64,000 bases of DNA from Dehalococcoidia bacterium (GCA_965221385.1 OZ244885.1:1088643-1152642), one strand, 5' to 3'. Counted from the first letter of the stretch, positions 11,012 to 54,002 are shown. Numbers and translations are program-made. The notes: generated by a model not told the origin, from the sequence alone.

Positions 11012-11239
11012 ATGCCCGTCAAGCCCAGGAACACCGTGACCATCACCTTCTCGCTGTCCTCAGACCAGGCGGAGGAGCTGAAAGAGGTGGCGTGGGAGGA
11101 GCAGCGCTCGGTCAGCGAACTGCTCCGCGAGGCCTTCCGGCTATACTTGGAAGAAAGGGAATGGCGGATTCGAGAACGAATGGCCCGGCGCCGGCGCCGG
11201 CGGCCCAAGCCAATTGAAGAGGAGGACATCCATGAGTGA
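11012..11239 (+). CDS. Ribbon-helix-helix (CopG/Arc-like) DNA-binding protein
   Basis: N-terminal beta strand TVTITFSL, then two helices (DQAEELKEVAWEEQRSVSELLREAFRLYL) and a basic tail; overlaps the recombinase start. Confidence 0.7.
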   Translation: MPVKPRNTVTITFSLSSDQAEELKEVAWEEQRSVSELLREAFRLYLEEREWRIRERMARRRRRRPKPIEEEDIHE

Positions 11240-11654
11240 AATCACGCAATTGACCCCCGTAGCCCTCTACGCCCGTGTCTCCAGCGACCGCCAGGACGTG
11301 GACCTGTCGGTGTCCGCCCAATTGAGAGCCCTCCGAGACTATGCCGAGAGGAACGGTTACGCCATCGCCCGCGAGTACGTGGACGAGGCCGAGAGCGGGC
11401 GCGTCGCTGACCGGCCCCAGTTCCGCACGATGCTGGAGGAAGCAGGGAAAGCCGACGCTCCCTTCAAGGAGATCTTAGTTTGGAAGTTCTCTCGCTTCAC
11501 CCGCAAGCGGGAACACGCCGTGGCCTTCAAGTCAATGCTCCGGCGCAAGGGTGTCCGCGTGGTGTCCATCACCGAGCACGCCGACGACTCTCCCACCGGC
11601 AAACTGATGGAGGCCATCATTGAGTCTGTGGACGAATTTTACTCAGAAAATCTG
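11232..11654 (+). pseudogene. Element A large serine recombinase, N-terminal resolvase-domain fragment (continues at 52776)
   Basis: VALYARVSSDRQD catalytic-Ser motif; ends ..IIESVDEFYSENL and then reads into foreign sequence (IPEAQST..*). The continuation AQEVVRGMREAASRGF is found at 52779. Confidence 0.85.
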
Positions 11655-13233
11655 ATACCGGAGGCGCAATCGACGCCAAATCTCCCGTTGGTATCGACAG
11701 AGAGAACGTGAGATTGTTTTCCCGGTCGATGGTCACCTCTTCCAGAAGAATCCGCAGCAACTCTCGCCTCTGATCCTGGGTCAGCTCGTCCAGCCCGTCG
11801 CCCATCCGTCCCGCCCACTCCAGCACCCGCTCCGCCAGCGCCACCTGCCCTGCTTGGGCCGACTCCCTGGCCTTGCAGTCGTCCAGCCTCCTCCGGGCCG
11901 TCTCCAACCTCTCGGTGATGAACTTCCGCTGGTGGTCCAGCTGAGCCTCGCTGATTTTTCCCGACACGAACAGCCGGATGGCCCGGTCCTCCTCCAGCTG
12001 CACCTTCTCCAACTCTCGCTCTGCCCTGACCAACTCCTCGCTCGTTCCGTCCTCTTCCTGCTCCCCCAAAGCCTCAATGCCAGCCACAATCAGGTCGGGC
12101 TTGGCCAACACCCCCTTGACCTGCTCCCAGACCCTCTCCTCCAGCCGCTCCGCCCGGATCATGGTGTGCTCCCGGCATCCGGTCTGGAAGTGCTGCACCC
12201 CGTAGCATTTGTAATAGCGGCGCGGCACTTCCAAGTCGTACTTGTAAACCTTGTCGCCGTGCTTGACAGTCCGCTTCCTCGTTGCCATGCAGCCCATGAG
12301 CATCCCGCACTCGGTGCAGCGCACCAAGTGTTGCAGCAGGTAGAAGATCTTGGTGTTGCGTCCGGAATAGGTCTTGCGCTTGGTCCGCATTTCCTGGCAC
12401 CGGTCCCAAGTCTCCGCGTCGATGATGGCCGGAAAGGGGATGCCGATCCAGTTCCGGGGGTCCTGCTCATAGACCTTGATGCCGTCCTCGGTGGAGACGT
12501 AGCGAGCCCGCCCGTACCACCAGGTGCCCTTGTATGCCTCGTTGGTCAGGATGCGGTGAATCTGGCCATCCCACCAGCGCTTTCCGTCCCGACCCATAGG
12601 AACCCCCTCGGCGGCGAGCCGTTGCCCGATCACCCTTGCTCCCAACCCTTCTTCAACGCACCAGCGATACATTCGGCGCACCACTTCGGCCTCTTCCTCG
12701 ACGATCTCCGGCCTCATGTCGTCGCCGACGCGGTAGCCGTAGGGAACGTTGGAGACCGGGATGCGTCCGGCTTTGGCGGCGCCCCGCTTGCCCATGGACG
12801 CCCGTTCCCGGAAGTTGTCCAGCTCGATCTTCCCGATCGCGGCCATGAGACCAAAGGTCTTCATGTCGATGGAGTCCATGACGGCCCGCAGGCTGATGTG
12901 GCTGGCCTCAATGACCTCCATCAGGGCGGCGGCGGGGTACATCCCCCGGCTGAGGCGGTCCGACTTCCAGCAGACGATGACGTCGAATTTGCCCTGCTTG
13001 GCGTCGTTGAGCATCTTCTGGAACTGGTTGCGCTTCTTGGACCAGCCCTGTCCAACCTCTTGGTAGCGGGCGACGATGGTCAGATCATTACGCTCGCAGT
13101 AGGCTTCCATGTCACTGGTCTGTTCGGCGATGGAGGTCTTGTCCTCGGCGTCCTGGCTCTTGTCGGAGACGCGGGCGTAGATGGCGGCGCGGTTGCCCTC
13201 GGACTTCTGCTTCTTCACTTTGGTTCCTGGCAT
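11617..13233 (-). CDS. Large serine recombinase (integrase) of element B
   Basis: AAIYARVSDKSQD resolvase motif, a recombinase domain, a zinc-ribbon-like CTECG..C..C segment and a coiled coil. The last ~12 codons (11617..11654) lie in element A sequence. Confidence 0.9.
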   Translation of the reverse strand: MPGTKVKKQKSEGNRAAIYARVSDKSQDAEDKTSIAEQTSDMEAYCERNDLTIVARYQEVGQGWSKKRNQFQKMLNDAKQGKFDVIVCWKSDRLSRGMYPAAALMEVIEASHISLRAVMDSIDMKTFGLMAAIGKIELDNFRERASMGKRGAAKAGRIPVSNVPYGYRVGDDMRPEIVEEEAEVVRRMYRWCVEEGLGARVIGQRLAAEGVPMGRDGKRWWDGQIHRILTNEAYKGTWWYGRARYVSTEDGIKVYEQDPRNWIGIPFPAIIDAETWDRCQEMRTKRKTYSGRNTKIFYLLQHLVRCTECGMLMGCMATRKRTVKHGDKVYKYDLEVPRRYYKCYGVQHFQTGCREHTMIRAERLEERVWEQVKGVLAKPDLIVAGIEALGEQEEDGTSEELVRAERELEKVQLEEDRAIRLFVSGKISEAQLDHQRKFITERLETARRRLDDCKARESAQAGQVALAERVLEWAGRMGDGLDELTQDQRRELLRILLEEVTIDRENNLTFSLSIPTGDLASIAPPVSDFLSKIRPQTQ

Positions 13234-13479
13234 ACTCGTTCACCTCCACTCGGTTCTAAACCTGGTATCTATCGGCTGAAAACAGAACAGACCCGCCCTC
13301 TGCCGAAAGCGGGTCTGCGAGTAGTACAATACTGCCGCAACACCTGGTTCGTGCAGGTGAGGCCACGGCCCGGGGCGTTGACGCGCCGCCGGGCCAACCT
13401 GTTGAGGGCATGATACATATCGGGGGCGCCGTAGTCAAAGCCCCGGCGCTCACTCGTAAGCCGGCTAGGTCGTAGCCGG

Positions 13480-13725
13480 TCAGGACTTCTCTTCATCTCC
13501 GCTGTCTTCCCTACAGGACATAGCGTTCACCTCCTCGCTGCTTAGGCGTCGCTCAACGTCGGCGATAGGCTCATCCCAATCGATGTGCTTGGCCAGCAGG
13601 GTGAAGATTCGACGCAGGCGGTCCTGGGCGTCGGGTGCAGGATTGAAGCGGACTTCTACCACTTCAAATTCGGGAAGCTCCCGGCGGTTGGTTTTGGGTT
13701 TCCTGTTCTTTCCGGTTTGTAGCAA
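13480..13725 (-). CDS. Small hypothetical protein upstream of the element B recombinase
   Basis: TTG start 6 nt after GGAGGAG; in frame with track ORF 13480..13911; positional analog of 10651..10836. Confidence 0.35.
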   Translation of the reverse strand: MLQTGKNRKPKTNRRELPEFEVVEVRFNPAPDAQDRLRRIFTLLAKHIDWDEPIADVERRLSSEEVNAMSCREDSGDEEKS

Positions 13726-13777
13726 TGGCGTCTCCTCCGGGATTGAGCGTAACCGGGAATGCGATGTTGAAACGCGC

Positions 13778-13848
13778 GTTCTACAACCAGTTTGGACTGG
13801 TAGGGGATCGGGGGTAATCCCCTGAAGGGGGTTACATGAATGCAATGG
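13778..13848 (+). promoter_or_regulatory. Conserved motif, left copy in element B (GTTCTACAACCAGTTTGG ... GTAATCCCCTGAAGGGGGTTAC hairpin ... ACATGAATGCAATGG)
   Basis: Direct repeat of 26361..26417 and inverted homolog of 10546..10606; contains imperfect hairpin 13814..13835. Confidence 0.5.
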
Positions 13849-13967
13849 TCCGACTTGACCTGGCGCCGGGTGAGAGGGGAGAAGGGCAATAGGCGAAGAG
13901 GCCAGCGCCATGCCCTATAGGAGGGAGCGACGCCAGCCTTGTAGTTGGTAACTCGTAACGCGCCGGC

Positions 13968-14234
13968 TCAACGCCGGCGGGCGTTCCGGGCGGTGGGGAG
14001 CAGGTGTCCCAGGCCCATGCCATCGGCCAGGTCCTGTAGGGCCAGCAGGTGCTCGGCGTTGGGTTGGACGCCACGTTTGCGCCACCGCCACAGGTTGATG
14101 GGGTTGATGCCCAACCGCCGGGACAGGTCCGCCCAGCTCAGGCCCGAGGCTGCCTGAAATTCCTCCAGACCCTGGGCGAAGTCGCCGGTCAGCCGGTAGT
14201 CCGCCCGCCGGTCTTTCACACGTTTGCGCGACAT
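13968..14234 (-). CDS. Small HTH DNA-binding protein
   Basis: ..ASGLSWADLSRRLGINPINLWRWRKRG.. helix-turn-helix pattern. Confidence 0.65.
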   Translation of the reverse strand: MSRKRVKDRRADYRLTGDFAQGLEEFQAASGLSWADLSRRLGINPINLWRWRKRGVQPNAEHLLALQDLADGMGLGHLLPTARNARRR

Positions 14235-14623
14235 GGCTTCATCCCTCCGCCCAGGGTGTCAAGGAAGTCCTCGCCCATGAGGATCTGCAGGCCGCCGGGT
14301 ATCCAGGCCGCCAGTTCCACCAGGGAGTGGTAGGCTCCGCCGCATGGCTCCGCGCCAGTTTTCCAGCGCATCACCTGCTTGGGTTCCACCCCCACGGCGT
14401 CGGCGAATCCCTCCCAAGTCAGGCCGCTGGCCTGCTTCAGGCGGGTCAACCGCTTGGAGAAGTCCACGGGCAGCTCACCACTGCCCTGGGGAGCCGGTCG
14501 GCCGTCAATCAGGGGAACGCCGGGGTTGACGGGCAGCCTGGGTTCACTATTCCTGCCGCTCGTGGTCTTGCTCTGGGTGTTGCAGGGTGAATAACTCATG
14601 GAAGTCCTCCATTTCCAGGGCAT
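14216..14623 (-). CDS. Small HTH DNA-binding protein (paralog of 13968..14234)
   Basis: ..ASGLTWEGFADAVGVEPKQVMRWKTG..; alternative ATG at 14599. Confidence 0.6.
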   Translation of the reverse strand: MPWKWRTSMSYSPCNTQSKTTSGRNSEPRLPVNPGVPLIDGRPAPQGSGELPVDFSKRLTRLKQASGLTWEGFADAVGVEPKQVMRWKTGAEPCGGAYHSLVELAAWIPGGLQILMGEDFLDTLGGGMKPCRANV

Positions 14624-14840
14624 TCAGCATCCGGCGTCGCACCCGCCCCGAGGGAGCCGCGCCGTGGTTGATCAGGTAGGACAGGTAGGTGGGTGTGATG
14701 CCCACCTGCCCGGCCAGCCAGTTCTGGGAACGGCCCAGCAGGGCCAGGCGGTTCCAGAGGGCGTGGGAGTTGAGCCGGATGCTGGGTCGTTTCACGGGTG
14801 TGGCAGTCCTGTGGTAGATTAAGCGTTGCATATTCGGCAT
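14547..14840 (-). CDS. XRE-type HTH protein
   Basis: ..LLGRSQNWLAGQVGITPTYLSYLINHG.. Confidence 0.65.
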   Translation of the reverse strand: MPNMQRLIYHRTATPVKRPSIRLNSHALWNRLALLGRSQNWLAGQVGITPTYLSYLINHGAAPSGRVRRRMLNALEMEDFHELFTLQHPEQDHERQE

Positions 14841-14935
14841 TGTAAGCAGTGGCGTTTTGCGTTGTCAAGAACATCTGTGCTAGTATGGCAGCCGCAATCC
14901 ATACGCAATTCCAATCACAAGGAGAAAATCACGCC

Positions 14936-15304
14936 ATGGCCAAGGACCGAGGCTACCAATGGACGGAATTAGGCGCTCGCATCAAGGAGGCCAGGCTCCA
15001 GACCGGTCTCACCCAGAAAGAGCTGAGCCATCTGATGGGGGTCAGCCCCCATGCCGTGTGGTCCTGGGAGTCTGGAAAGATGCGTCCCACCCCGGAACGC
15101 CTGCTGGAACTGGCCCAGCACTGCCAGACCAGCACTGACCGGCTGCTGGGCCGGGAGTTCCTGGAGGAGGAGATCATGAAGGAAATGGACATCTCCTTCC
15201 GCCGGGCCATTGAGGGCCTCCCCGTGGAGGACCTGGAATCGATACGGAACTTCATCCAGTTCGTGCGCACGGAACGAACGCGCAAGAATCGGGCGGGCCT
15301 ATGA
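14936..15304 (+). CDS. XRE-family repressor (ImmR-like)
   Basis: ATG 11 nt after AAGGAG; ARLQTGLTQKELSHLMGVSPHAVWSWESG; ATGA overlap with the downstream ImmA-like gene. Confidence 0.8.
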   Translation: MAKDRGYQWTELGARIKEARLQTGLTQKELSHLMGVSPHAVWSWESGKMRPTPERLLELAQHCQTSTDRLLGREFLEEEIMKEMDISFRRAIEGLPVEDLESIRNFIQFVRTERTRKNRAGL

Positions 15305-15744
15305 CAGCCGGGTATATGAGCCGCGCCATGCGCAAGGGCGCGGAGCTGCGGCGGAAACTGAGGTGGCGAGGAGAGGTGGATGCTGAGCACGTGGCGCACA
15401 TCCTGGGCCTGACGGTAATCTCCTGGCCGATGCAGGTGCAGGAGGAGTTGCAGGTGGACGGTTATGTGGCCGTGGCCGAGCGGCTGGACTCCCGTTGGCG
15501 GCGTTGGGTAATCGCCCATGCCATCGGACACCGGCTGATGCACCCGGGCAATCACATGTTGATGCGGGCCAACACCTGGCTGGGCCACCAGGTCGAGCGG
15601 GAGGCCGAGGACTTCGCGGCGGGCCTGCTGATGGACGCCGACGAAGCCCTGGCCGAGGGACTGACCCGGGCCTGGGAGATCGCCGAGTACTTCGGCGTTC
15701 CCGAGGAGGTGGTGAGGCTTCAGCCCGCCATGCGGCTGGAATAG
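15301..15744 (+). CDS. ImmA/IrrE-family metallopeptidase-like protein with HAIGH in place of HExxH
   Basis: Translationally coupled to the XRE repressor; WVIAHAIGHRLMH at 15505..15543 occupies the place of the zinc-binding motif. Confidence 0.7.
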   Translation: MTAGYMSRAMRKGAELRRKLRWRGEVDAEHVAHILGLTVISWPMQVQEELQVDGYVAVAERLDSRWRRWVIAHAIGHRLMHPGNHMLMRANTWLGHQVEREAEDFAAGLLMDADEALAEGLTRAWEIAEYFGVPEEVVRLQPAMRLE

Positions 15745-15788
15745 TCGGCTATTCGACATCCTTCCTTTGTCCCCTTTCATCATCCGGG

Positions 15789-17432
15789 TCAACCCTCCGT
15801 CAGAAACTGGCGCAGTTCCCAACTGCCCGGCCCATGCCAGGCGGCGCCCATCGGCCCTTCCTTTTCCAAATCCTTACGGCAGGCGACCCACAGGGGAATC
15901 TTCACCCGGTTTCGGGCCATCTCCCGTTGCGCCAGCCGGTGGAAGTGTCCGGCGGCCAGTTCGTCTTCGAAAGCCACCAGTACCAGCGGGACCATGCCGT
16001 GGTCGTCCAACGGTCGGTTGGTTGAGTAGTAGCGGAGGTACGGCGCGAGCCGGGCTGACATGGTGGCCGGCCTGATGGCCCGGCGCTCCCATTCCAAGAA
16101 GAAGGAACGGACTGTGTTGCCGTTCCTGAGGGTTCCGAAGGCGTCGGGATGGATGGAGCGCAGGCGGCCCTGTTGCCGGTAGTGGCGCGACGCCCGGTGG
16201 GGCGGGTCCAACTGCTCGACGCTCCAGCCCAAGCCCTTGGACTGCCTGACAAGGGCCGCGACGAACTCGTGGACGGCGGCGGTGTGCTCCACGTTGCGCA
16301 GCAACTGTCGAGTCCTTCTGCCGGAGAAGTTCCGCCAGGACTCCGGCATCTGTGAATCAGCATCCTCCGCGCTCCACCGATGCTTCGCCATTCCAACGGC
16401 CGCCCGGTCCCGCCGGGCCAGGTGTGACAAGCCCCGGTCGGTCAGGGCCAGCCGTCGGCCCTGGATGGAGACGACCCGGTACAGCCCGGCGTCGGACAGG
16501 ATTCCCAAGAGTTGGTACATACGGGAGCGGGACACGCCCAGCAGCTCCCGCAATTCCTTGGCGGTGACGCCGGGCCAGTCGGCGATCAGGTCCAAGGCCC
16601 GCTTCGCGGTGGGCGCAATCAGCGGCGGGAGCAGCCAGTCCAGCGCGGGGTGATCCGACGGCGGCAGGTCCCGGGGGAGCGCCACCCGCGCCGGTGGCGA
16701 CTCCGTAGGCAACTCTCCTCCACCGGCCAACAGAGCCAGGATGCGGTTCATGGCCAGAGGCGCGGGCGTTGACGGCATACGCCAAATCCGATCCTGGGGT
16801 CCGGCCCAAGCCGCGTACCGCTCCAGGGCCAAGAACGTCGGGGTGAATCCGCCCGCCAGAATCCGGCGGGCGTGGCGGAGCCTGGTTTCGTCGGAGGCCA
16901 GCAGCAGCAGAGCATCGGGAAGCGGCCCCGCTTTCAGCTTGGTCAGCCGCTTGGCGAAGGCGGTCCGGTCCGTGAAGGCTCCCTGCCGTATGATGCCGAT
17001 GCTCCTCCCGTCGGCCAGCCTCATGGCGGCGTCCAGGGATCCGGACCGGTACCAGCGCCACCCGCCCAGGCCTTGCTCGGCGGCGGTGATCGCCGCCGCC
17101 ACCCGGTAGATGACCGCCACCCCGTCCAGCCGCTCCAGCAGGATGCGGCGCCACTGCTCCGACACGGGCCTGCCCTGAAGTAGCTGATGCAAGGCCATCC
17201 TGTCCAGTTGCGCCAGGGCGTTCACCCCGTCGGCGGTGAGGCAGTAGCGGCGGGTGGGTGAAACCAGGGGCGAGGCGTGGGATATGGAGACTGCCAAGCC
17301 GCCCCGTTCCAGGTCGGCCATGGCGTCGTAAACCGCGACCTTGGAGCGGCCGGAGACCGTGGCGGCCTCCAGCCGGTCCAGGAGGGGCACGTGCGACAAC
17401 AACCGCAGCATCTCCCCTACTACTGTTCTCAT
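15789..17432 (-). CDS. Replication-relaxation family protein, two tandem modules (candidate relaxase)
   Basis: NVEHTAAVHEFVAAL .. IHPDAFGTL .. FFLEWERR pattern as I recall it for the Replic_Relax family; wHTH segments; ATGA overlap with the coupling protein gene. Confidence 0.65.
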   Translation of the reverse strand: MRTVVGEMLRLLSHVPLLDRLEAATVSGRSKVAVYDAMADLERGGLAVSISHASPLVSPTRRYCLTADGVNALAQLDRMALHQLLQGRPVSEQWRRILLERLDGVAVIYRVAAAITAAEQGLGGWRWYRSGSLDAAMRLADGRSIGIIRQGAFTDRTAFAKRLTKLKAGPLPDALLLLASDETRLRHARRILAGGFTPTFLALERYAAWAGPQDRIWRMPSTPAPLAMNRILALLAGGGELPTESPPARVALPRDLPPSDHPALDWLLPPLIAPTAKRALDLIADWPGVTAKELRELLGVSRSRMYQLLGILSDAGLYRVVSIQGRRLALTDRGLSHLARRDRAAVGMAKHRWSAEDADSQMPESWRNFSGRRTRQLLRNVEHTAAVHEFVAALVRQSKGLGWSVEQLDPPHRASRHYRQQGRLRSIHPDAFGTLRNGNTVRSFFLEWERRAIRPATMSARLAPYLRYYSTNRPLDDHGMVPLVLVAFEDELAAGHFHRLAQREMARNRVKIPLWVACRKDLEKEGPMGAAWHGPGSWELRQFLTEG

Positions 17433-20089: not shown

Positions 20090-20139
20090 ATCGTTATCCT
20101 CCCTTCTTCTATGGGTCTATTGGTTGCCGTTTCCAGCTT

Positions 20140-22335: not shown

Positions 22336-22374
22336 GTATGTTTCCTCCTTCCTTCTCGAATGATTTTGTGTCTG

Positions 22375-22704
22375 CTACGGGATTGGGAAATCGACCAGAC
22401 CGGAGCGGAGCAGGGCGGCGATTCCCTTGGCCGAAAGGGTCAGGACCAGGCCGACGACTGCCAACGCCACCGCGCTCTTGGCGCGGCCGCCGCCTCGCTC
22501 GTCGGTTCCGTCTGCCATCAGCAGGAACCCTGCCCAGACGATGGCGAAGAGACACAGGCCGGCACCGGCGTAGGCAAACGTGGTCAATGCCGCGTCGAAG
22601 GCGTCCAGCATGGCCTGCTCCTCCAGCGTCGGGCTGTAGAGCATGGTTCCCGCGCTGCTGCGCAGGATCGTCAAGATGGCGTCCATCACCAGGGCCACCC
22701 CCAA
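22375..22704 (-). CDS. Small two-TM membrane protein (TrbC/VirB2 pilin-like)
   Basis: Two hydrophobic helices separated by a charged loop; alternative start MDAILT at 22686 overlapping the upstream stop. Confidence 0.55.
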   Translation of the reverse strand: MGVALVMDAILTILRSSAGTMLYSPTLEEQAMLDAFDAALTTFAYAGAGLCLFAIVWAGFLLMADGTDERGGGRAKSAVALAVVGLVLTLSAKGIAALLRSGLVDFPIP

Positions 22705-24281: not shown

Positions 24282-24284
24282 CTC

Positions 24285-24608
24285 CTAGTTGCCGGACCCG
24301 GCGCCGGTGTTGCCGCTTCCGGAGCCACCGCTGCCGGAATTGCTGGTGGGATTGGGGAGGGTGGGGTCAACGGGGTTGCCCACCACGGCGTTCATCACCA
24401 GTTCCACCACGCCGTAGGCCACCATCGCCAGTACGATGCCTGCCAGGGCGGTCATCATGGCCGTCTTGCCCCGCTCCATCTGGTTGGGGGCGCCACTGGC
24501 GGTCAGGTACATGAAGGCTCCGTAGATGAAGTAGCCCACGCCGACGATGCCGACGATGCCCAACAGGATTCCCACGATGTTCGATATGGTCTGCGTCAGA
24601 TCAGCCAT
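24285..24608 (-). CDS. Pilin-like two-TM protein with Gly/Ser-rich tail
   Basis: ATG after AAGGAG; IVGILLGIVGIVGVGYFIYGAF .. AMMTALAGIVLAMVAYGVV; the track ORF extends to 24683. Confidence 0.6.
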   Translation of the reverse strand: MADLTQTISNIVGILLGIVGIVGVGYFIYGAFMYLTASGAPNQMERGKTAMMTALAGIVLAMVAYGVVELVMNAVVGNPVDPTLPNPTSNSGSGGSGSGNTGAGSGN

Positions 24609-25706: not shown

Positions 25707-25711
25707 GTGGG

Positions 25712-34373: not shown

Positions 34374-34377
34374 CACG

Positions 34378-43430: not shown

Positions 43431-44309
43431 AGCTGCCTCTACTCGGTAAGGTCTGGGGCTTGACCTTGCGCCAGTTGGTCGTAGGCTTTCAGGACGTAGC
43501 GTTGGGTCCGGTACTCGCCGAACTCCCGCATCTCGTTGCGCTTGAGGCCTGGGAAAGATCGGGACGGCTCCGGCGCGTCGAGGATCCACTCCAAGTCGGG
43601 CCGATCCAATTGGTACATGTGGGCGTAGATGGCGTCCAACTCGCACTTCAGCCGGTGGCGCCGCTCCTCATCCCAAGGGAAGGGTGGGCCGTCGTAGCCA
43701 AGGTCCCGGGCGAAGGGTTCCAGGTCGTGGGCTGTGTAGGTCAGTTCCAGCACCCGTGGCACCACCATCTCCACCCAAGCAACGCCGGGCGAACCCTCCT
43801 CCAAGTACACCTCTGGCGGCAGCACCGGCAGCTGCTTCAAGATGAAGAAGTTCAGATTGACGCCCCCGACAGACAACCGAGCAGCCCAATCAAGCGGCAG
43901 ACTGTTCAAGTTTGCCAACACCAAGCATGAAGCGGTTGATTGCCAGTTTTCGTAGGCGAGAACTGGCGCACTATTGCCTACACCGCCGGTTGGCAGGTTT
44001 TCTGTCACCACAGTCCGCTCATTGGTTGCGTTAGTGATGCCCCGGATAGCCTGAAGCCAACTGGATGATTCCAGACGGATCAATGGCGCTTTGTTGCTCA
44101 CGGCGACTCCAGGTATTGCCATGCAGATTGCGGTTCGTTCGTTGGTTGGGCTTGCGATGTCCCTGAATACAATGACCCAACCGAAATGGTAGTGCCAGAA
44201 TCGCTGAGGCCCACGCTTGCTATCATTGCGGAAATTCCCGTTCGCTCGTTGGTCGGGTTGGTGATTTTCCTGAGAGCGAGCTGCGAGCCAATGCCGCGAG
44301 GGTACGTAG

Positions 44310-44417
<108 letters not shown>

Positions 44418-44913
44418 TAGGATGGTATCGCCGGTGTTTTCTGATTTGTCAAGTCTTTCAGCGACCTCTTTTTCCGGGACCCAGTAACGCGGCATGATCA
44501 CGGTGTAAGGGTCAGCCTTTTCCTCGTCGGTCAGCTCGCGGGCGTTGCCGCCCAGCAGGGCTTTCTCGTCCACGCCATCAAAGGTGGCAAAGCGGTGGTC
44601 GTACTGGTGGAACAGCTTGGCCTCATATAGTGGCAGGTAACGTTCCACATCCTCCCCTTCTCCTCGCACGAACACGTTGCTCTGTAGCCCAAATCCGGCC
44701 TCCTCAAAGCTCCCTCCAGGAGCGGAAGATGCTGGAGTCGTTGGACATGTCGAACATTCTCTGGAATCTGACGCCCCAGGGGTTGCTGACTGAGGGAGAG
44801 TCTTTCCTTCTAGCCGGTAGCCCTGAGCTTCCAGTTCTGTCCGAGTTCGAAACAGACCGGATGCGCTTGACATGTGAAACATCGACTGAAACCGTACGCT
44901 CCAAGGATTCCTG

Positions 44914-44922
44914 CCCCCCCCC
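44914..44922 (-). repeat. G9 homopolymer (C9 on the plus strand) within the methyltransferase gene
   Basis: Counted directly; lies at the switch between track ORFs 44704..47916 and 44223..45074. Confidence 0.95.
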
Positions 44923-47879
44923 GGCACCTTGGCTGTCGCGGACGAAAACGCCGGCTCGCTGGTACATTTTGGCGGCGACTTCCATGTCCCGCCGAGTGCG
45001 GAATGTGGGGCTGGTTCGGGTATTGGGGTTGAACAGGGCAAAGTCTTGAGGCGCCAGGTTGTACCTACGGGCATCGTCCTGTAGTTGTTGAGATTGCGTA
45101 AGGTAGAAGGCGAACTCCGCCTGTGGGCTGGGTCGGCCCGTTCCGGTCATGGTGAGCAGGCAGAACTTTATCCTGCTGTCGATACCGGCAAAGACCTTCT
45201 CTCGATTTTCGAAGTCAAAGAGGCTGACCAGGGAGCGGCGGTTCACCAGGTCACCGAAAAATACCTTGGTTGTATCGTCTGTGGCTATCCCTGAAGGCAC
45301 GATGATGCCGGCGCGGCCCGATGGGTGGCAGATTATCCGCGCCGTTTCCGAGAATATGGAGTAGGTATTGACATCGCCGCGTCCGGCCAAAGGAAACCGA
45401 TTGCTGTTGCGAACAAAGCGGCTGACCGACTCTGAATCGTGAACGGCGTCATCAAATGCCTTGGCCAATGCAGGATTGGTGTTGGGCAACCTGTTGATCA
45501 ATCTGCTGCGGGCGGCCTTGTTGGGGGCGTTAGCGATTTCAGGGTCTCGTGTGGCAAAGAACTCCTTCTCCTGGAGCTTGATCCGCTCCCAGGGCGGGTT
45601 GCCCAGCACCACGTCGAAGCCGCCGGCCTCCATTACGTCGGGAAACTCTAGAGGCCAGTGGAAGAATCGTTGCCGTTCCGACGCCCCCATAGCGGCCCCC
45701 ACCAACTTCGCGTTCGCGCTATGGTCCTGTAGGGCATTCCGGACGTTCTGGGTGGTAGGAACCATGTCTACCCCGTCCGAACCTGCCGGCTTAAGCGGAG
45801 CGAAGAAGCCGTAGGTCCACAGGTCGCAGGCCGTCTTGATCTCCCACCATCGGGTGCCCTGCCCACGCAGTTGTTTGTACAGGTCCTCCTTGGCTTTCAC
45901 CTCTGACGGGCTGCGTTCCTCCAACTGGCCGAAGGCTGCGAAGTCCTCGCCCAATTTCGCCGAGGACGATGGAAGTATCTCCAGATTCATGCTCTGCTGT
46001 CCCGTCAACTCCCGCCGGTTGCGATTACGGTAGTCAGTTGCCGCTCTGTTGTCATCGCCGGTAACGGTCCTGTAGGCCCCGTCCGGGATGCCCTCTTCCA
46101 AAACCGTAAAGTCACTGACGCCCACCAGACTATCGCCGCACTTGATGCGATGGTCCAGGAAGCTGAGGGGCAGGCCGGCGGCGTGGCTCTCCAGCCACAA
46201 TGCCACCTTGCACAGGTCCACCGCCAAAGGATTCTTGTCCACGGCATAGATGCAGTTGCGGACCACCTCTCGCAGGGCGGCGCGGTAGTCTGAGGGTGAC
46301 GGCTCGTCCTCACCAGTACGAACCTTCGCCAGCTCCCGTGCGATGCGGCGGGCGGCCGCCAGCAGGAAATGGCCGGAACCCGAAGCTGGATCGCAGACCC
46401 GCAGGCTCAGCAACGCCGCCGCCTTATCCTCCGGCGTAGTGGCCTCATTCAATCGCTCTTCCATCACGGGCGCCAGGGCGCTTTCGACCAGTTCCCGAAC
46501 CAGTTCCGGTGGCGTGTAGTAGGAACCCGTTTCCTTCCGTTCGGTGCCGGCGGCCAGCCTGAAGTGCGCAGGCTCACCAAGGTCATCTCCCAAATCCACA
46601 ACCGGGCGGTAGTCCAGGAGGCTCTCATAAACGGAGCCGAACTCCTCAACGTCCAAATGCGCGTAGTTGACCCGGCGGCGGATGCCCTTGTCACGGAAGG
46701 TAGATAGATGAAGCAGGGTTAGCAGCAGGGACTTGTTGGGGCAGAAAGCCTTCTCGATGTCCTTGCAGGCGCTCGATCCAAACAATTCCCCGTTTAGCGG
46801 AGACATACCCAGGTGGGTCGCGGCTTGTTCATCGCGGAACATGCGGAATGTCTGGGCGAGCCTTTCCCAGAGGTCGCCATGGTTGTCGTCGGCGAAGTTG
46901 CCTTCGGCACGGTCTCGAAGGCTGGAGACGCTGTAGTATCGGTCATATATTGCCTGCGCCTCCAGAGAGGCGCCAGAAGACAACAGCCTGCGCTCCTCGG
47001 TAACCATGAGGAAGAGCATCCGGTACACGAAATTGAGAAGCTGCCTGAAGTACCCTGCTTCTGTGAGCCGGCCGGCGCGGATGGCTTCTCGCAAGGTGTC
47101 GTTGCGAGGATGTCCAACCAATGCCGACCCCAGCTCAGCGAGCGCCAGCTCCACGCCGTGGCGCAAATTCTCCCGCACCCTTCCGCCTTCCTCGATGCCT
47201 TGGGTGTAGTATTGCTCCAACAGGCACTCATGGGGTTCAACGCCGTCGCCAGGAAATCGGCTGGCGTGAAGCAGTCGGTAGAGCACCACGAAATCCCCGT
47301 AGGCATTGCTCTCCAGCATCGAACGGAGATCGAACTCCAAGTAGGTCGGCCTGGACAGGCGAGCGCTATCGCGTAGGAGCCGTAGTTTGGCTCCATTGGA
47401 CACCAGGCCCCAAAGGGTCTCCGAGCGGTTCAGGTAATCCTGAACCAAGGCGTGGGGCGTTCGACGGCTGGCGGTTCCGCGCCGATCCAGGTCCTCTCTG
47501 ATGCCGACGATGTGCAACGGTGGCGCATTCTCGGAGTCATGGATACGGTGAGAAATTGGGAACAACGTACCCCCGACGTCGGCCGAGGCTCTTTGGTATT
47601 CCACATTCGTGAATCCCAACAGCTCCATGAACCCGGTCATCCAGTCTCGCCGGGTTAGCGTCGTTTCGCTCTCCCTGGAATTCTCCAAGCGGGCATCGAA
47701 GGCGACCCAATACTTGCGGGCCGCGTCAAAGGCCTTCCCCGTTTCGTCGGGGAGACGGGAGCCAGGAGGCAGATTGAAGTCCTCAACCGCCTGACCCGCG
47801 ACTCTCCCTTCCTCTGACGCTAGTCGCTCCAGCAAGTCTGGGGGAAACAATCCGCCTTCGATATTGATGGTCGTGTAGC

Positions 47880-50711
47880 TCATGGAGATGCTCCAGCTGG
47901 CGTCAAAACGTAGCACCCAATGATGTCCGGCGGCAGGTGAGGTTCTACCTTAACCTTGGATCCCCTAACGGTTCGCCGCAATCGAGCGTGGGCGCCTTCA
48001 AGGGCCGCAACACGCTCAGCGATAATGCCATTGGCCCAGTCGCCATCCAGCATTCCCAAGGCCCATTCGACGTGCTCGTGACGCTCTGCCTGGGAGATGT
48101 TGGCCACGGGTTCAGCATCGCTGAGAAGCCGGAGGGCTTCATCCTGCAAAGGGGAAAGCCAACGTAACCCATCATCGCCTCGCTGAAATGCAGCCGCGAC
48201 GACTTCCTCGGCGAACTGTTGGCTCTCCGCTTCTATCAGGTATCGCAAACGCAATATAAGCACCGCCGTGCGTCGTTCTACCGCACGGGTGACAATGGCT
48301 CCAGAACGGGAGAAGAGCTGGTCGTTACCTTCAAGGGAACGTGAAAGCACTGATTCTGCCGTGGTTGCGACAATGGGGTGATTGCGCCCCAACAGAGTTA
48401 CTCCCGGCGGGGGTACGCCCTTGAAGGACACCTGCATCGGGAAGGACAACCGCTGGTCTCGCGCAATAATACGGGTCTGCAAATCGCCTGGCGCCAAGGT
48501 GAACACCCCGTCAGTCTTGGTGTCGCGGAGACCTCCGTTGAATCGCTGCACGGCGTTTGCCATGAACCGATACACGTCATCGGCGCTGCCCAACACTGGA
48601 TCCATCTCGGCAAGCTCGCCAGCAACCTCGTCGGGCTGGATTCCGCTTTGGGCGAAATAGGCCCGGGATTTTCCGTCCTTGTCGGCCATTTCCTCCCACG
48701 CCTCATGCAGGCGACTAACTGATGGATCCTCCAGGGCGAGACCGATTTGCTGCCCCTGGCTCGGCCGTCTCAGCAGCACACTGTCCACCAGAGCGTTAAC
48801 TACCTGCTCCGATTCTACAGGCACGGGCACGGAAATGCCGAGGCTTTGGCGGATGGTCTGAGCCTTTCGTAGTAGGACATCAAGGACAACCAAATCGATC
48901 TGGTTGTCCGCTCCGTATAGGAGCACGGTCTTGATTGTGGGCTTGCTCTGGCCAAAGCGATCAACCCTGCCTTCGCGCTGCTCCAGACGATTTGGGTTCC
49001 AGGGAAGATCATAGTGAACCACGGCGTCGTAGTGGTCCTGTAGGTTTACGCCCTCGCTCAGACAATCCGTAGCCACCAGGACTCTCACCGGCTGTTTTGC
49101 CAACTCCAAGACGATTTCCTTGCGTTGCTCGCTGTCGCCTGCATTACCGGTTACTGCCTTGACCGTGAGGCCCCCGTGACTGCTTTCCAATGACTGCTGA
49201 ATGTGCTCTGCTACGTAGTGGGCGGTCTGAATGAAGCGGCAGTACACTATGGGCCTGTATCCCTCGCCCAGAAGTTCGGATACAATCTTGGCGGTTTCTC
49301 GGACTTTGGCGTCCTTGCCAGGTTTGGCCAGGTCATCGGCGCGTTTCAGGAAATCGTCCAATCTCCGAATTTCGCGGGGCCCAAGAGAGCCGCTGTGGTC
49401 GTCCTCGTGGGTCGCTGGAACATAATCGGTGGCCTGTTCCTCATCGACGGAATCCATTAGTTGCTGGCCAAATGAATCGTCAGGCGCGAATCCGTTCTGT
49501 CGTCCGGACGTGGGCGGTTTGCGGTTCTGTAGCGCGGCCCGGGCGGCCCAGGGGCTGGACAAGACACAACGTAGGATCGACAGAGCCGCCCAGTAACGGA
49601 CTCTCTGGCGTTGGTCCTGCACGCCTGAACCGGAAACCTGCTCCCGGCAATAGGACAGTATGTCTTCGTACAGCCTGTGATAATCCGCCGACATCCTATA
49701 GCTCCGTTCGACAGCCTCCCTTTGGGGGAACGGCGTGTCAACTCCCAGCCAGCGTTCCAGGTCAATCCTCCTCCGCTGAATGAAATGAGGCAGCAACTTT
49801 TGGCGGGGAACCTCCGTACCGTCGGGCGGATCGAAGCTGGTATCGATGATACCGAGGAGGGACCTGAAGCTCTCCTCAATTCCGCTATGGGGAGTAGCGG
49901 TGGTAAGGATCAGGTGCCTGTTCGAGTCCTGCGCCAAATCCCGCAGCAGCGCATACCGTTGGTGTTGAGACCCTCCCCGGTCACCCCTCGGTCGTGCGGC
50001 GGTGTGGGCTTCATCCATAACAATAAGGTCTGGCGCATTATCCAAGAATCGCTGACGATTTCGGTCCGATTTTACGAAATCTATGCTTACTACGAGGTGG
50101 CGGTAGTGCTGATAGAGAGACACGTCTCCGCGAGGTAAGGCTCGCTCCAACCTCGCGATTCTGGAAGACTGGACAACAGCCGCTTGGATGTTGAATTTCG
50201 TGCGTAGCTCCTCCTCCCACTGCTCGCAGAGGTGTGGAGCGCACAGAACACCAACCCGACGCACAACTCCTCGGTCCAACAGCTCTCGCGCAATCATCCC
50301 AGCCTCAATGGTTTTCCCGATGCCAACGTCATCCGCGATCAGTAGGCGAACGGGATCGAGGCGAAGCGCCATGATTAGAGGAACAAACTGGTATGGGCGT
50401 GGAACAACGGAAAGCCGCCCCATCGACCGGAAAGGGCCGGCGCCGCTCCTCAGTCCGAGCCGCACCGCATCCCGAAGCAGAAGCGCCCCGGTAAAGTCTC
50501 CAGCCGAATTCGGGTCAGGTTGCTGGTACTCCGAATGCTTTAAGGCCGTCGGTTCCAGGGGCAGATAGACCCCTATGGCATCCTCGTCGGAGCCGTCAAT
50601 GGGTCGCAGTCTGGCCACGTTTGGTTCATCAGGCGGCAAAACCACCCAGTCCCGGCCGCGCGCGCGGACCAACTGCCCTGGCGTCCACTTGCTCTCCTGC
50701 CGTGAAGCCAC
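47880..50711 (-). CDS. drmD: SNF2-family helicase, DrmD-like
   Basis: LIADDVGIGKTIEAG, VMDEAHT, TATPHSG, helicase C ..LATDCLSEGVNLQ..REGRVDRFGQ; ATGA overlap with the MTase start. Confidence 0.8.
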   Translation of the reverse strand: MASRQESKWTPGQLVRARGRDWVVLPPDEPNVARLRPIDGSDEDAIGVYLPLEPTALKHSEYQQPDPNSAGDFTGALLLRDAVRLGLRSGAGPFRSMGRLSVVPRPYQFVPLIMALRLDPVRLLIADDVGIGKTIEAGMIARELLDRGVVRRVGVLCAPHLCEQWEEELRTKFNIQAAVVQSSRIARLERALPRGDVSLYQHYRHLVVSIDFVKSDRNRQRFLDNAPDLIVMDEAHTAARPRGDRGGSQHQRYALLRDLAQDSNRHLILTTATPHSGIEESFRSLLGIIDTSFDPPDGTEVPRQKLLPHFIQRRRIDLERWLGVDTPFPQREAVERSYRMSADYHRLYEDILSYCREQVSGSGVQDQRQRVRYWAALSILRCVLSSPWAARAALQNRKPPTSGRQNGFAPDDSFGQQLMDSVDEEQATDYVPATHEDDHSGSLGPREIRRLDDFLKRADDLAKPGKDAKVRETAKIVSELLGEGYRPIVYCRFIQTAHYVAEHIQQSLESSHGGLTVKAVTGNAGDSEQRKEIVLELAKQPVRVLVATDCLSEGVNLQDHYDAVVHYDLPWNPNRLEQREGRVDRFGQSKPTIKTVLLYGADNQIDLVVLDVLLRKAQTIRQSLGISVPVPVESEQVVNALVDSVLLRRPSQGQQIGLALEDPSVSRLHEAWEEMADKDGKSRAYFAQSGIQPDEVAGELAEMDPVLGSADDVYRFMANAVQRFNGGLRDTKTDGVFTLAPGDLQTRIIARDQRLSFPMQVSFKGVPPPGVTLLGRNHPIVATTAESVLSRSLEGNDQLFSRSGAIVTRAVERRTAVLILRLRYLIEAESQQFAEEVVAAAFQRGDDGLRWLSPLQDEALRLLSDAEPVANISQAERHEHVEWALGMLDGDWANGIIAERVAALEGAHARLRRTVRGSKVKVEPHLPPDIIGCYVLTPAGASP

Positions 50712-50819
50712 GCGATTACCTACCTATTTTCCAAGTCTTTGTGCCATCGTTTGACATCATCAAATTATTACCTTAATATTGCAACACGCTTCACTAACCC
50801 AGCGACGGAACCTGCCGTG

Positions 50820-51656
50820 ATGACCACCGACACCAAGCCCAAGCAAACATTGGTAGGGATCGAACTCATCCGATTGCTTACCTCCGAGGGCGACCGTATC
50901 TTCACCATCGAACGGGCTCGCGAGTTGGCGCCCCGTGTCGGGCTGAGAGATTCCTATCTTCGGGAGGCATTGTACCACCTTCGCCAGAACGGATGGATAG
51001 TCTCCCTACGACGGGGACTGTATGCCCTTTGCCCGACGATTCCAGGCGTGCCGGCTGCGCACGAGTACGAAATCGCCACGTTTCTGGTGACGCCTGCAGC
51101 CATCTCCCATTGGTCAGCCTTGAGCTATCACGGCCTCACCGAGCAGCCGCCTAGGACTGTCTTCGTATCGACCACCACGCAGGCTTCCGTTCCCCGGTCC
51201 AGGCGAAACGATGCGGACCGCCTTGACCAGGGCTATGAAGTCCTGGGTACAGCATACCAATTCATTCAACTCAAGCCGGAACGCTACTTTGGGGCTGAAA
51301 AGGTTTGGCTCAACGACGCCCGGGTGAGGATTACCGACCTGGAACGCACACTGCTGGACGCGCTATCCATGCCCCAACACTGCGGCGGATTTGCCGAGGC
51401 CCTCCACGCCTTTCGTTCAGTGACGGACAGGTTGGACATCGACCGGATCGTGGGTTATGCCCTCCAGCTCGATGGAGCTACCGCCAAGCGTCTCGGCTGG
51501 GTTTTGGAGCAAGACGGGATAGATTCACCGCAACTGGATGTCCTCGCCGACTTCCCAGTCAGGGGATACACGCGGCTCGACCCAACCGGGCCCAGAAAAG
51601 GGAAGTGCGGCGGGCGGTGGATGATTCAGGAGAACCTGCCCGGAATGCTTGCATGA
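50820..51656 (+). CDS. abiEi: AbiEi-family antitoxin/transcriptional regulator
   Basis: ..LRRGLYAL.. ISHWSALSYHGLTEQ .. DLERTLLDAL pattern. Confidence 0.75.
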   Translation: MTTDTKPKQTLVGIELIRLLTSEGDRIFTIERARELAPRVGLRDSYLREALYHLRQNGWIVSLRRGLYALCPTIPGVPAAHEYEIATFLVTPAAISHWSALSYHGLTEQPPRTVFVSTTTQASVPRSRRNDADRLDQGYEVLGTAYQFIQLKPERYFGAEKVWLNDARVRITDLERTLLDALSMPQHCGGFAEALHAFRSVTDRLDIDRIVGYALQLDGATAKRLGWVLEQDGIDSPQLDVLADFPVRGYTRLDPTGPRKGKCGGRWMIQENLPGMLA

Positions 51657-52531
51657 TGAGACCACTACACACCCGTCTTCAAGAAGCCCGCCAACGCCTG
51701 GGCCTACCATGGGAAGTCCTGGAGCGTGACTACCTGCTGTCGTGGGTCTTGGCAGGGATAGCGCGAACGCCGGCCCTCCGCGACTCTCTGGCATTCAAAG
51801 GCGGCACGGCCCTCAAGAAGTGCTACTTCAGGGACTATCGCTTTTCCGAAGATTTGGACTTCACGGGACTGGACAGCGCCCCTACTGGGGAGGCGATGGA
51901 AGGGGCCATGAAAGAAGCCATCGAGAGTGCGTTGGAGTTGCTAGAGGAATATGCCCCCATCGTTCTGGAATGCCAAAGGTACTCGGAGCGGGAGCCGCAC
52001 CCAGGCGGTCAAGAGGCTTTCGTCATACGCGCTCAGATGCCGTGGCAGAACCAGCCCCAGACCCGAATCATGGTGGAGGTAACGCTTGACGAGAAGGTTT
52101 TCTGGCCGATGGAAAGACGGCAAGTCGTCCACGAATACGGCGAGCCTCTGGAGGCTGAGGTCCTGATCTACTCGCTGGAAGAGGTGGTGGCCGAGAAGCT
52201 GCGGGCAATCCTCCAGCACGCGGATACACTGGAACGGCGGGGCTGGAGCCGTTCCAGGGCACGGGACTACTACGACCTTTGGCGTGTGTTGGGAACTCAC
52301 CGACAACGGTTGGATCTGACCGAGTTCGACGCCAATCTGCGGGACAAATGCGCTCTCAGGAATGTGGCATTCACCGGGCCGGCTGATTTTTTCGCTCCTC
52401 GAATGATGGGCTATGTCCGCGAAACGTGGCGACAGTCGTTAGGCCCACTGGTCCCAAACCTGCCTGCCTTCGATGCGGTTATTGAAGACCTACGCCCGCA
52501 AGTTTCGGGACTCATGGCGGGCGACGACTAG
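51653..52531 (+). CDS. abiEii: AbiEii/AbiGii-family nucleotidyltransferase toxin
   Basis: LAFKGGTALKKCYFRDYRFSEDLDFT; ATGA overlap with abiEi. Confidence 0.8.
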   Translation: MMRPLHTRLQEARQRLGLPWEVLERDYLLSWVLAGIARTPALRDSLAFKGGTALKKCYFRDYRFSEDLDFTGLDSAPTGEAMEGAMKEAIESALELLEEYAPIVLECQRYSEREPHPGGQEAFVIRAQMPWQNQPQTRIMVEVTLDEKVFWPMERRQVVHEYGEPLEAEVLIYSLEEVVAEKLRAILQHADTLERRGWSRSRARDYYDLWRVLGTHRQRLDLTEFDANLRDKCALRNVAFTGPADFFAPRMMGYVRETWRQSLGPLVPNLPAFDAVIEDLRPQVSGLMAGDD

Positions 52532-52775
52532 GGGCAAATCGGAGGCCGCTACCCCTAGGTTGACCGTCCGGTGGCACCGATGGGTTGCGTCCCACCAATG
52601 GCAGGTGGTTGAAAGTGGTGGAAACGGGATGCAGCAGGAATCCGGACTGCCCCACAGGTGGTGCGGGGATGCTGACTGCGCTGGACGCGCCCGATTGCTG
52701 CCTCACGTCAATCCGCTTCCAACCCCGCTACCCAGGAATACCGCAGCTTTTGGTGGTGATTGACTGACCAATAAC

Positions 52776-54002
52776 TTGGCGCAAGAGGTCGTTAGGGGCA
52801 TGAGGGAAGCGGCCTCCCGTGGCTTCTGGATGACCACCAACGCCCCCTACGGCTACCAACGGGTTTACGTCCAGGACGGCGCCAAGAAGCGACCCCGTTT
52901 GGCCCTGAATCCCCCGCACGACGCCGTGGTCCGCCGCATCTTCGATCTCACCCTCCAGGGCAAGACTTCCCTGGACATCCTGAAGACCCTCAACGGCGAG
53001 GGCATCCCCTCGCCCATGGGAAAGCAGTGGCGCAAGACCACCGTTCACAAGGTGTTGGGCAACGAAGCCTACACGGGAACACTGGTCTGGGGCGAAAACG
53101 CCAAGGACAACGCCCCGCCGGTGCGGGTGGAGAACGCCTTTCCCGCCATCGTGACGAAGGGAGAGTTCGCCCGGGTCCGCAGCCTCTTGGAGTCCCGCGC
53201 CCCCAAGGTAACCCACCCTCGGCGGGCCGCCAGTCCCTACCTGCTGAGCGGGCTGGCAAAGTGTGAGACCTGCGGCAAGGCCCTGACTGCCGCCGAAGCC
53301 AAGAGCGGCAAGTACACCTACTACGTCTGCCAATCCATGCTCAAGCTGGGCAAGGATGCCTGCAACTGTCCCCGGCTGAATGCCAAAGACTTCGAACAGC
53401 TCATCATCTCCACCCTTCGGGAACACATCCTCACCGAGTCCAACATACGAGATTTGGTCAAGATGTTGGATGAGGAGATGGACGGCGTGGCCAGGGATCA
53501 AAGGGACCGGCTGGAGACGGTGGAGGCGGAACTGGCCGAGGTTCGGCGGAAGATGGACCGCATCTGGTATTTTGTAGAGAACACCAAACTGGACATGGCC
53601 GACGCCTCGGAGCGCATCCTAGAACACCGCCACCGGCGGGAGCATCTGGAAGCGGCCGCCGAGGAAGCCAGGGCCGTCCTGGCGGAACGGAGGCAGTTGC
53701 TGGACAGCGCCGACGTGATCGCCGCCTTCGCCACCGAGATGGGGGAGTTCCTGCGCACCAGCGAGATCACCGAGACGCGGGCCTTCATCCGGTCATTCGT
53801 GAAGGAGGTGACAGTGGTTGCCGGCAAAGCCACCATCATCTACACAATCCCCACCCCCAAGGACAGCCCCATCAGGGGAGCGGACATGGCGGAAGTGGCT
53901 TTGAATGGAGGTTTTCGCAGTACAATACATGATGGTGGGCCGTGTGGGGGTCGAACCCACGACACCCGGATTAAAAGTCCGGTGCTCTGCCGACTGAGCT
54001 AA
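52776..54002 (+). pseudogene. Element A large serine recombinase, C-terminal fragment (continuation of 11232..11654)
   Basis: Starts (L)AQEVVRGMREAASRGFW..; recombinase domain, zinc-ribbon-like CETCG..C..C and a coiled coil. The last ~23 codons are translation through the antisense of tRNA-Lys, so the true end is uncertain. Confidence 0.85.

Follow-up and report, generated by a model that had tools for sequence, protein, structure and literature searches.

Why is a large serine recombinase (LSR) gene present in two pieces, far apart, in the genome of a Dehalococcoidia bacterium, and why does the DNA between the pieces start with another LSR gene? This arrangement is found in a stretch of 64,000 nt (GCA_965221385.1 OZ244885.1:1088643-1152642; in the following the window, to whose whole length all coordinates refer). 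An initial annotation had proposed that one integrative element is inserted into the integrase gene of another. We designate the outer element A and its split, "recA-type" LSR gene recA, the inner element B and its LSR gene recB. Element B proper comprises ~41.1 kb (11655..52776), as judged from its gene content and from the homology to an intact reference locus (L001), which stops at 11654 and resumes at 52773-52779. Very probably, B is an integrative conjugative element (ICE) whose recombinase recB inserted the attachment site attP of B at an attB within the LSR gene of the sibling element A, which itself resides at a tRNA-Lys gene.

Insertion of element B into recA is clean to the nucleotide

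Both open reading frames (ORFs) on which the annotation was based are present. ORF 11214..11711 (+) most likely starts with the ATG at 11232, which corresponds to Met1 of intact homologues. Its product resembles LSR catalytic domains as far as ...IIESVDEFYSENL, with the leucine codon at 11652-11654; the peptide at the end of this serine-recombinase catalytic-domain part reads ...MEAIIESVDEFYSENL. Beyond 11654 the ORF continues with IPEAQSTPNLPLVSTERT and a stop codon, which is the antisense of the recB 3' end. ORF 52776..54002 (+) begins with (L)AQEVVRGMREAASRGFW. The N-terminal fragment of recA, which at the same time forms the B arm of attL, thus covers 11232..11654 (+, residues 1-141, ending with ...SVDEFYSENL), and the C-terminal fragment covers 52779..54002 (+, residues 142-548, starting with AQEVVRGM). 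The hexamers at the two junctions are AATCTG (11649-54) and AACTTG (52773-78), as had been claimed.

When 11232..11654 and 52779..54002 were joined in silico, an in-frame LSR of 548 aa was obtained. Its Pfam analysis revealed an unbroken Resolvase domain at residues 10-156 (PF00239, 3.8e-32, profile positions 1-143 of 145, serine motif in ALYARVSSDRQ), followed by the Recombinase and Zn_ribbon_recom domains. PF07508 (Recombinase) and PF13408 (zinc beta-ribbon) exceeded the cut-off in both the recA join and recB, and the alignment to the solved SPbeta integrase spans residues 52-373. Both fragments are free of stop codons and frameshifts. According to alignments with the solved domains 3guv and 3bvp, the split maps to the C-terminal end of the catalytic domain. 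Going by established serine-recombinase structures, we take this position to be the long alpha-E helix.

The annotation had suggested a search for the uninterrupted gene in other genomes, and among 5.8 billion proteins such a homologue was indeed found. The protein P0001 has 548 aa, aligns to the recA join without gaps (97% identity, 100% coverage) and is identical to it across the junction (...SVDEFYSENLAQEVVRGMREAAS...). Its gene lies uninterrupted on a 3.37-Mb Dehalococcoidia chromosome (locus L001, genome OZ244879.1). In a blastn comparison L001 8834-10423 matched window 10070-11654, and L001 10418-11654 matched window 52773-54009. The two matches share just 6 ambiguous bases (AAxxTG). Consequently, no base was lost or duplicated at the junction, and neither is any residue missing or duplicated relative to P0001. 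The insertion of B into recA is clean to the nucleotide and the split gene reassembles in frame. The nucleotide identity to L001 is 88-93% compared to 97% identity at the amino acid level, the divergence being mostly synonymous. Together with the intact fragments, this would be compatible with a recent insertion or with selective maintenance alike.

The different serine recombinase which the annotation had located directly inside the left junction is recB (11617..13233, -). It encodes an LSR of 538 aa which is only 26% identical to recA, carries the Pfam domains Resolvase (PF00239, 6.8e-26, serine motif in AIYARVSDKSQ), Recombinase and Zn_ribbon_recom, and is identical to the database protein P0121. 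The recB reading frame crosses attL, so that its last 12 codons and the stop codon lie inside the recA sequence; the tail DFLSKIRPQTQ in front of the stop is the antisense of the recA codons for SVDEFYSENL. In the circular form of B, recB is predicted to have a different C-terminal end and 549 aa. The last 11-22 residues would thus be altered on integration, because attP overlaps the recB 3' end.

Element A is bounded on the right by a tRNA-Lys(UUU) gene (53933..54008, -, detected with ARAGORN). The end of the recA ORF runs antisense through this gene, its last 70 nt (tail 53934-54002) lying within the 76 nt of the tRNA. The homology to L001 ends at 54009, and ordinary chromosomal genes follow. 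Homologues of recA (73-97% identity) likewise terminate in antisense translations, either of tRNA-Lys or of the 3' ends of other tRNAs (P0001-P0120). Therefore, the recA family is a group of serine integrases which target tRNA genes and whose attP overlaps the 3' end of their own gene with its stop codon. The visible part of A on the other side of the insertion (1..11231; the left end of A lies beyond the window) is related to B: positions 1-2786 and 35301-38081 are 88.8% identical in inverted orientation, as are positions 4961-8714 and 28367-32139 with 85.3% identity. This backbone similarity of 85-89% over 6.5 kb indicates that A and B are siblings which possess different integrases.

Attachment sites of element B

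The annotation had placed the crossover within a few nucleotides and had assumed a 2-bp core. Our data are compatible with this and narrow the core down. In 42 attL sequences the target side is ...GAr AAy yTG, and aTaCCGgnGgtnCAATCGAcnCnAA is found on the element side; the TG is invariant, while the two bases in front of it vary with the Asn and Leu codons of the target and thus derive from attB. The P' arm of attP, which is retained in attL (11655..11700, ATACCGGAGGCGCAATCGACGCCAAATC), is conserved in these 42 sequences. The P arm is retained in attR (52737..52776, ...TTTTGGTGGTGATTGACTGACCAATAACT). Homologous P arms with the motif GATTG precede ...GCCCAGGAGGT in the loci L042, L051, L052 and L054. 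Five attR sequences exhibit ...TTTTGnGnnGATTG, then 14-15 nt, then TG and the recA continuation, with L054 as an exception that is considered below.

When attP was reconstructed, an imperfect inverted repeat with conserved GATTG/CAATC was obtained (TTTGGnGnnGATTG ... CAATCGAcnCcAAA). At a 2-nt offset 19 of 38 positions match between the P and the P' arm, and the symmetry axis runs through the T of TG. Two other dinucleotides of the hexamer were considered as core and rejected. With AA (11649-50) the distances of the attP arms to the GATTG/CAATC motifs would be 10 versus 16 nt, and the following two bases vary with the target codons among close relatives; at hexamer positions 4-5 attL and attR differ (TT/CT). 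Since the latter pair differs and the former is grossly asymmetric, the crossover dinucleotide is most likely TG, at 11653..11654 in attL and at 52777..52778 in attR. It is the only dinucleotide which is common to attL and attR, adjoins the symmetry axis of attP and is invariant in the 42 attL sequences.

The joins originally proposed (11654 to 52776 for attB, 52775 to 11655 for attP) turned out to be 3 nt off. The corrected attB joins 11654 to 52779 and reads ...TCAGAAAATCTGGCGCAAGAGG..., whereas attP joins 52778 to 11655 and reads ...GACCAATAACTTGATACCGGAGG...; written around the core, the two joins are 11652-TG-52779 and 52776-TG-11655. Within recA, attB is located at codons ~130-150 (peptide ESVDEFYSENL/AQEV).

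Recurrence of the insertion and its explanation

One genome per species was scanned for relatives of recB. The resulting 80 loci all belong to Dehalococcoidia/Chloroflexota metagenome-assembled genomes (MAGs). In 41 of them, complete long-read chromosomes among them, the recB homologue is directly adjoined at its 3' end, and at the identical nucleotide, by an antisense recA-type fragment (residues 1-141, ...[ST][VI]DE[FY]YSENL). The same junction is present in 29 of the 38 loci L002-L039, whose recombinases are 70-96% identical to recB, and among the 120 best clusters of recB-like proteins, 44 (62-100% identity) possess a C-terminal tail of 10 residues which is explicable only as the antisense of [ST][VI]DE[FY]YSENL. 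Thus, the whole recB clade uses one junction, and the integrase gene of a sibling element is a dedicated attB and not an accident. The flanks of the 41 junction loci differ, which so far contradicts a single inherited insertion, and the recurrence at 41 independent loci excludes chance. Together with the gapless join, the intact homologue with 97% identity and the ICE genes of the insert, it bears out the claim that one element is inserted into the LSR gene of another. The pattern observed is a clean, recurrent and orientation-specific insertion beside an intact LSR gene, with an attP symmetry of the LSR type.

B-like elements occur in different A contexts. Some of these copies are 92% identical, and one relative has lost the block encoding the type IV secretion system (T4SS), which indicates recent movement. 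The host elements of several loci carry the same T4SS family.

The relatives of recB also use other sites. At nine loci they are inserted at a second LSR codon (residue 252, between ...NEAYTGTL and VWG), the DNA there being similar, on the side of the B arm, to that of the first site (TAC-nCn-Grn-Amy-yTG). In four loci (L042, L051, L052, L054; ~11550-11910) only recA-type residues ~141-252 were found beside a class-2 recB-like recombinase. On the other side of this middle LSR piece lies a class-1 right end, consisting of a P arm with GATTG and, in L052, of AbiEi. Since the middle piece is flanked by two different elements, one integrase gene has been split twice, at two codons, giving three nested levels. 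A recB subclade of 551 aa is inserted in the SNF2-like helicase gene of an ICE backbone at motif VI (...YTMRQASRRSWRIGQ...) in eight loci (L058, L061, L063, L064, L066, L069, L074, L081; ~11545-12300 each), the C-terminal helicase fragment following directly downstream on the same strand. The homologue of this helicase gene in the window is located at 35900-38230. In L079 a helicase fragment was found in the opposite orientation. Finally, at about eight loci relatives of recB lie in unrelated genes with a similar motif, as is typical for pseudo-sites. These loci are L024, L043, L041, L073, L011, L019, L033 and L071 (junction at ~11530-11600), and the genes concerned encode, for example, a glyoxalase-like protein and a GMC-oxidoreductase-like N-terminus. 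Such natural pseudo-sites could serve to delimit the sequence requirements of attB.

According to the mechanism which we propose, recB would have recombined the attP of circular B with the attB in the catalytic-domain coding region of recA, strand exchange taking place, as suggested above, at the dinucleotide TG. With B integrated, recA would be truncated after residue 141 and would lack every DNA-binding domain as well as the last part of the catalytic domain. A would thus be unable to excise by means of its own integrase and would be locked in place. Conversely, recB and a putative directionality factor would excise B and restore recA exactly in frame. Both the loss of the integrase function of A and its restoration on excision are predictions that follow from the sequence. 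For B, the recA site may be harmless to the host and available in several copies wherever A-type elements occur, and its use would immobilise a competitor with the same backbone.

A more far-reaching reading is that an ICE lineage of the Dehalococcoidia has become specialised and is obliged to land in core genes of its siblings (mainly the LSR catalytic region, in addition a second LSR codon and helicase motif VI), with nesting up to three levels deep. The outer elements, whose integrase is present in fragments only, would then have to await the departure of the inner ones before they could move, and the arrangement would represent conflict between mobile elements or a hierarchy in the control of excision, not the neutral choice of a safe harbour. 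We put this forward tentatively and rate its chance as slightly less than even. Provided that the targeting is functional, an element is able to deprive another of its mobility and to return it later. Horizontal gene transfer in this phylum, which is abundant in the environment and has received little study, would thereby gain a further level of hierarchy and conflict.

Several observations weigh against a B which is still active, and against parts of the proposed mechanism. Three of them, the missing attP state, the fragmented methylase and the lack of conjugation genes near recA, speak for a fossil insertion, with B or its att sites no longer able to excise and recA a permanent pseudogene in two pieces. 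Neither an excised circle nor a read of the empty site was found. A strict search pattern for the attP junction gave 0 matches in metagenome contigs. A relaxed pattern gave 52, none of which has an LSR gene nearby, so that they are regarded as chance matches. The predicted recB tail of the attP state, ...PPVS(S/D)YWSVNHHQKLRY, is absent among the top 120 homologue clusters. The organisms may be absent from the metagenome collection, so these negative attP scans say little. Furthermore, the defence methylase of B is present in three frame pieces around (GGCT)27. In genome OZ244879.1 the intact recA-type gene, apparently a competent attB (L001, 46-68 kb), exists beside two B-occupied recA-type genes (L004, 1.54 Mb; L002, 1.62 Mb, with an element that is devoid of the T4SS block), and consequently the targets are not saturated there. 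In the attR of L054, TC is found in place of TG. Element A of the window contains no T4SS between recA and the primase gene and no conjugation genes near recA, and it may already be a defective remnant; if so, the immobilisation of a competitor is moot for this copy of A. The adaptive rationale of targeting recA is conjecture on our part. On the other hand, recB is full-length and has all three LSR domains, the recA fragments are free of stops and 97% identical to P0001 at the amino acid level despite 88-93% nucleotide identity, the attP arms are conserved among the relatives, and the 92%-identical B copies in different A contexts together with the relative that carries the T4SS deletion point to recent movement. 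We consider a fossil insertion unlikely, but still worthy of serious attention.

The remaining explanations are far less likely. A domesticated, host-serving rearrangement of the type known from skin in sigK or from the fdxN element, in which developmental excision switches on a needed gene, would show a similar geometry, with an LSR gene at the edge of the element and a coding sequence that can be restored in frame. However, the interrupted gene is the integrase gene of a mobile element beside a tRNA attachment site and has no host function, B carries a complete-looking conjugation module, and related recombinases target other ICE backbone genes and occasionally unrelated genes with a similar DNA motif. 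Moreover, we know of no terminally differentiating cell type in these organisms. This explanation is therefore very improbable. The same inverted repeats that document the kinship of A and B (1-2786/35301-38081 and 4961-8714/28367-32139) could have misled the assembler of a MAG or, through homologous recombination between backbone copies of 85-89% identity, could have driven inversions. But the breakpoints lie 3-20 kb away from the repeats, the recA fragments are collinear and on the same strand with a junction precise to 6 nt, and 41 other assemblies, some of them complete long-read chromosomes, show the identical junction; an inversion between the large repeats was rejected as the cause of the split, since it would place the recA fragments on opposite strands. 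An artefact is thus hardly conceivable. We attach just as little credence to a one-off event, in which recB normally targets another locus and has met a chance similarity in recA. Relatives are sometimes found in unrelated genes (..EEFYTEVL in L024, ..FEAYPDDL in L043, ..EVYAAESL in L041), but the LSR site accounts for the majority (41/80 loci, 29/38 of L002-L039), and the minority of other sites resembles its motif.

The initial annotation had compared the locus to the skin element. LSR-excised elements that interrupt genes are known as skin (SpoIVCA) in sigK, SPbeta (SprA) in spsM and gin in gerE (PMC5595907, PMC6957869), and as the fdxN element (XisF) and other interruption elements of cyanobacteria (PMC4874684). 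The comparison holds for the geometry, i.e. an LSR gene at the edge of the element, an insertion within a coding sequence and an ORF which can be restored in frame. It fails for the target. Those elements interrupt host genes that are required in a differentiated cell, excise in terminally differentiated cells and have mostly lost their mobility genes, whereas B has the genes of a full ICE and interrupts a mobile-element integrase gene at a tRNA site. The cyanobacterial survey (PMC4874684) lists one interruption element whose target is an "integrase family protein" gene; it is a single precedent for an integrase gene as target and not a dedicated lineage.

The closest precedent is provided by nested ICEs, and it is closer than skin in sigK. 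Tn1806-like ICEs integrate site-specifically in snf2 of ICEs of the ICESa2603 family (PMC12942858), and ICEs as well as integrative mobilizable elements (IMEs) which target traG, oriT or snf2 of other ICEs have been described (PMC4701971, PMC7563843, PMC5704250). As in the case of Tn1806 in ICESa2603, the attB of a conjugative element with serine recombinase(s) is a conserved gene in the backbone of another ICE, an ICE resides within an ICE, and the inner element is in principle able to leave alone. The likeness extends to the recurrent site specificity (41 loci, same nucleotide junction) and to the sister subclade of 551 aa that targets the SNF2-like helicase gene. In contrast, the target in the window is the integrase gene of the other element, which would deprive the outer element of its means to excise. 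Element B has one LSR gene at its edge, compared to three adjacent serine integrases in Tn1806, where the targets are snf2 or methyltransferase genes. Furthermore, the hosts are Chloroflexota (Dehalococcoidia MAGs), the inner and outer backbones are 85-89% identical, and the system is known from sequence alone.

Two further systems resemble parts of the locus. Serine-recombinase islands are found at ssrA of Dehalococcoides. The recA-type LSR gene of element A adjoins a tRNA gene and its homologues adjoin other tRNA genes, as is usual for tRNA/tmRNA-targeting genomic islands (PMC4383910). This likeness concerns A alone, and the integrases of such islands are mostly tyrosine recombinases, whereas recA is a serine recombinase. 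In SSV-type integration the integrase gene of the element itself harbours attP and is split when the element integrates (discussed in PMC5861418). There, too, the ORF of an integrase contains an att site, and an integrase gene is altered by the integration. However, SSV splits its own tyrosine integrase, while in the case of B only the C-terminal tail of recB changes and recB remains an LSR of 538 aa; the gene that is split belongs to another element and to a different LSR family (26% identity).

In a large survey of LSR targets (PMC10083194), genes for Mg-chelatase, competence, secretion and HNH proteins are enriched, and LSR genes are not mentioned as targets in its text and part of its supplements. 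In the literature searched, no LSR clade specialised on LSR genes is described, which is not proof of novelty. Compared to the known systems, the distinguishing features are the lineage-wide dedicated attB in a sibling's integrase gene, the nesting at several levels and the poorly studied phylum.

Such nesting accounts for many pseudogene-like serine-integrase fragments in Dehalococcoidia MAGs. It also provides a rule for the annotation of nested elements, which can be recognised by a recombinase that ends with ...PPVS-D/N/G/S-F/S-x-x-x-T/I-R-P..., the antisense of ESVDEFYSENL. Moreover, an LSR family with computationally defined attP/attB pairs and with natural variants for two related attB sequences has become available. 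These recombinases could be used for studies of specificity and for genome engineering.

Gene content of elements B and A

By its predicted genes, element B is an ICE, with an integrase, defined attL and attR sites and conjugation functions. Inside the left end, recB is followed by genes of helix-turn-helix regulators at 13968-14234 (-), 14547-14840 (-) and 14849-15304 (+), identified by the Pfam families HTH_3/HTH_31. The conjugation module (15789..24683, -) was recognised by Pfam matches and by its conservation in relatives. It encodes a Replic_Relax protein of 547 aa (15789-17432; a weak match with 28.6 bits compared to a cut-off of 25.3), a coupling protein (17429-20089), a VirB4/TraC-like ATPase (20140-22335), a PrgI-like/membrane protein (22686-24281) and two T4SS pilins (22375-22704 and 24285-24683; T4SS_pilin, 4.8e-10 and 2.6e-06). 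Further matches to conjugation machinery were TrwB_AAD_bind (3.4e-07) and P-loop_TraG (2.8e-12). In 25-35 related loci the same genes are situated upstream of the recB homologues.

The replication and recombination backbone which B has in common with A (28456..38230, +) was assigned by Pfam and by nucleotide identity to A. It comprises an ORF of 157 aa and genes for a primase (28922-29992), SSB (32594-32968), RadC (33002-33628), a DUF6094 methyltransferase (34569-35816) and the SNF2-like helicase mentioned above. A copy of the Rad52-like gene of A is contained in 28367-32139 (+) by nucleotide homology, although it has no ORF call of its own in B.

In element A the corresponding genes are a helicase gene cut by the window start (~1-2190, -), a Rad52-like gene (6134-6946, -, Pfam Rad52_Rad22) and a primase gene (7106-8176, -, Pfam Zn_ribbon_DnaG/Toprim), accompanied by ORFs of 155 aa (8169-8636, -) and 290 aa (9283-10155, -). 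This helicase/Rad52/primase backbone, which A and B share, makes up the two inverted repeats (2.8 and 3.8 kb), between which 20 kb might be inverted by homologous recombination. The segment 2787-4960, which has a low GC content (51-55%) and is unique to A, takes the place of the SSB/RadC/methyltransferase block of B. It holds just two ORFs, of 129 aa and 179 aa, both without a Pfam match. A ribbon-helix-helix gene (11012..11239, +, Pfam RHH_1, 1e-08) overlaps the start of recA by 8 nt. This gene pair is also present in L001, and the ribbon-helix-helix protein is a candidate for a regulator or directionality factor of element A. The element at L001 is a remnant of ~8 kb adjoining cas genes.

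The right part of B contains defence cargo of lower GC content (38340..50711, -). It comprises genes for a DruE-like helicase with an MZB domain (38340-43646), a DrmMI/type IIG-like methylase (44704-47916, with downstream pieces at 44223-45074 and 43439-44122) and a DpdE/DrmD-like SNF2 helicase (47880-50711). An AbiEi, AbiEii pair (50739-51656 and ~51653-52531, +; toxin-antitoxin/abortive infection) is located at the right end of B, and an AbiEi homologue adjoins the class-1 attR in L052 as well. The methylase region harbours a perfect (GGCT)x27 microsatellite at 44310-44417, which is translated as PASQ repeats. Around this tract the reading frame is divided into the three pieces given above. 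The locus could represent either a phase-variable switch or a broken defence gene.

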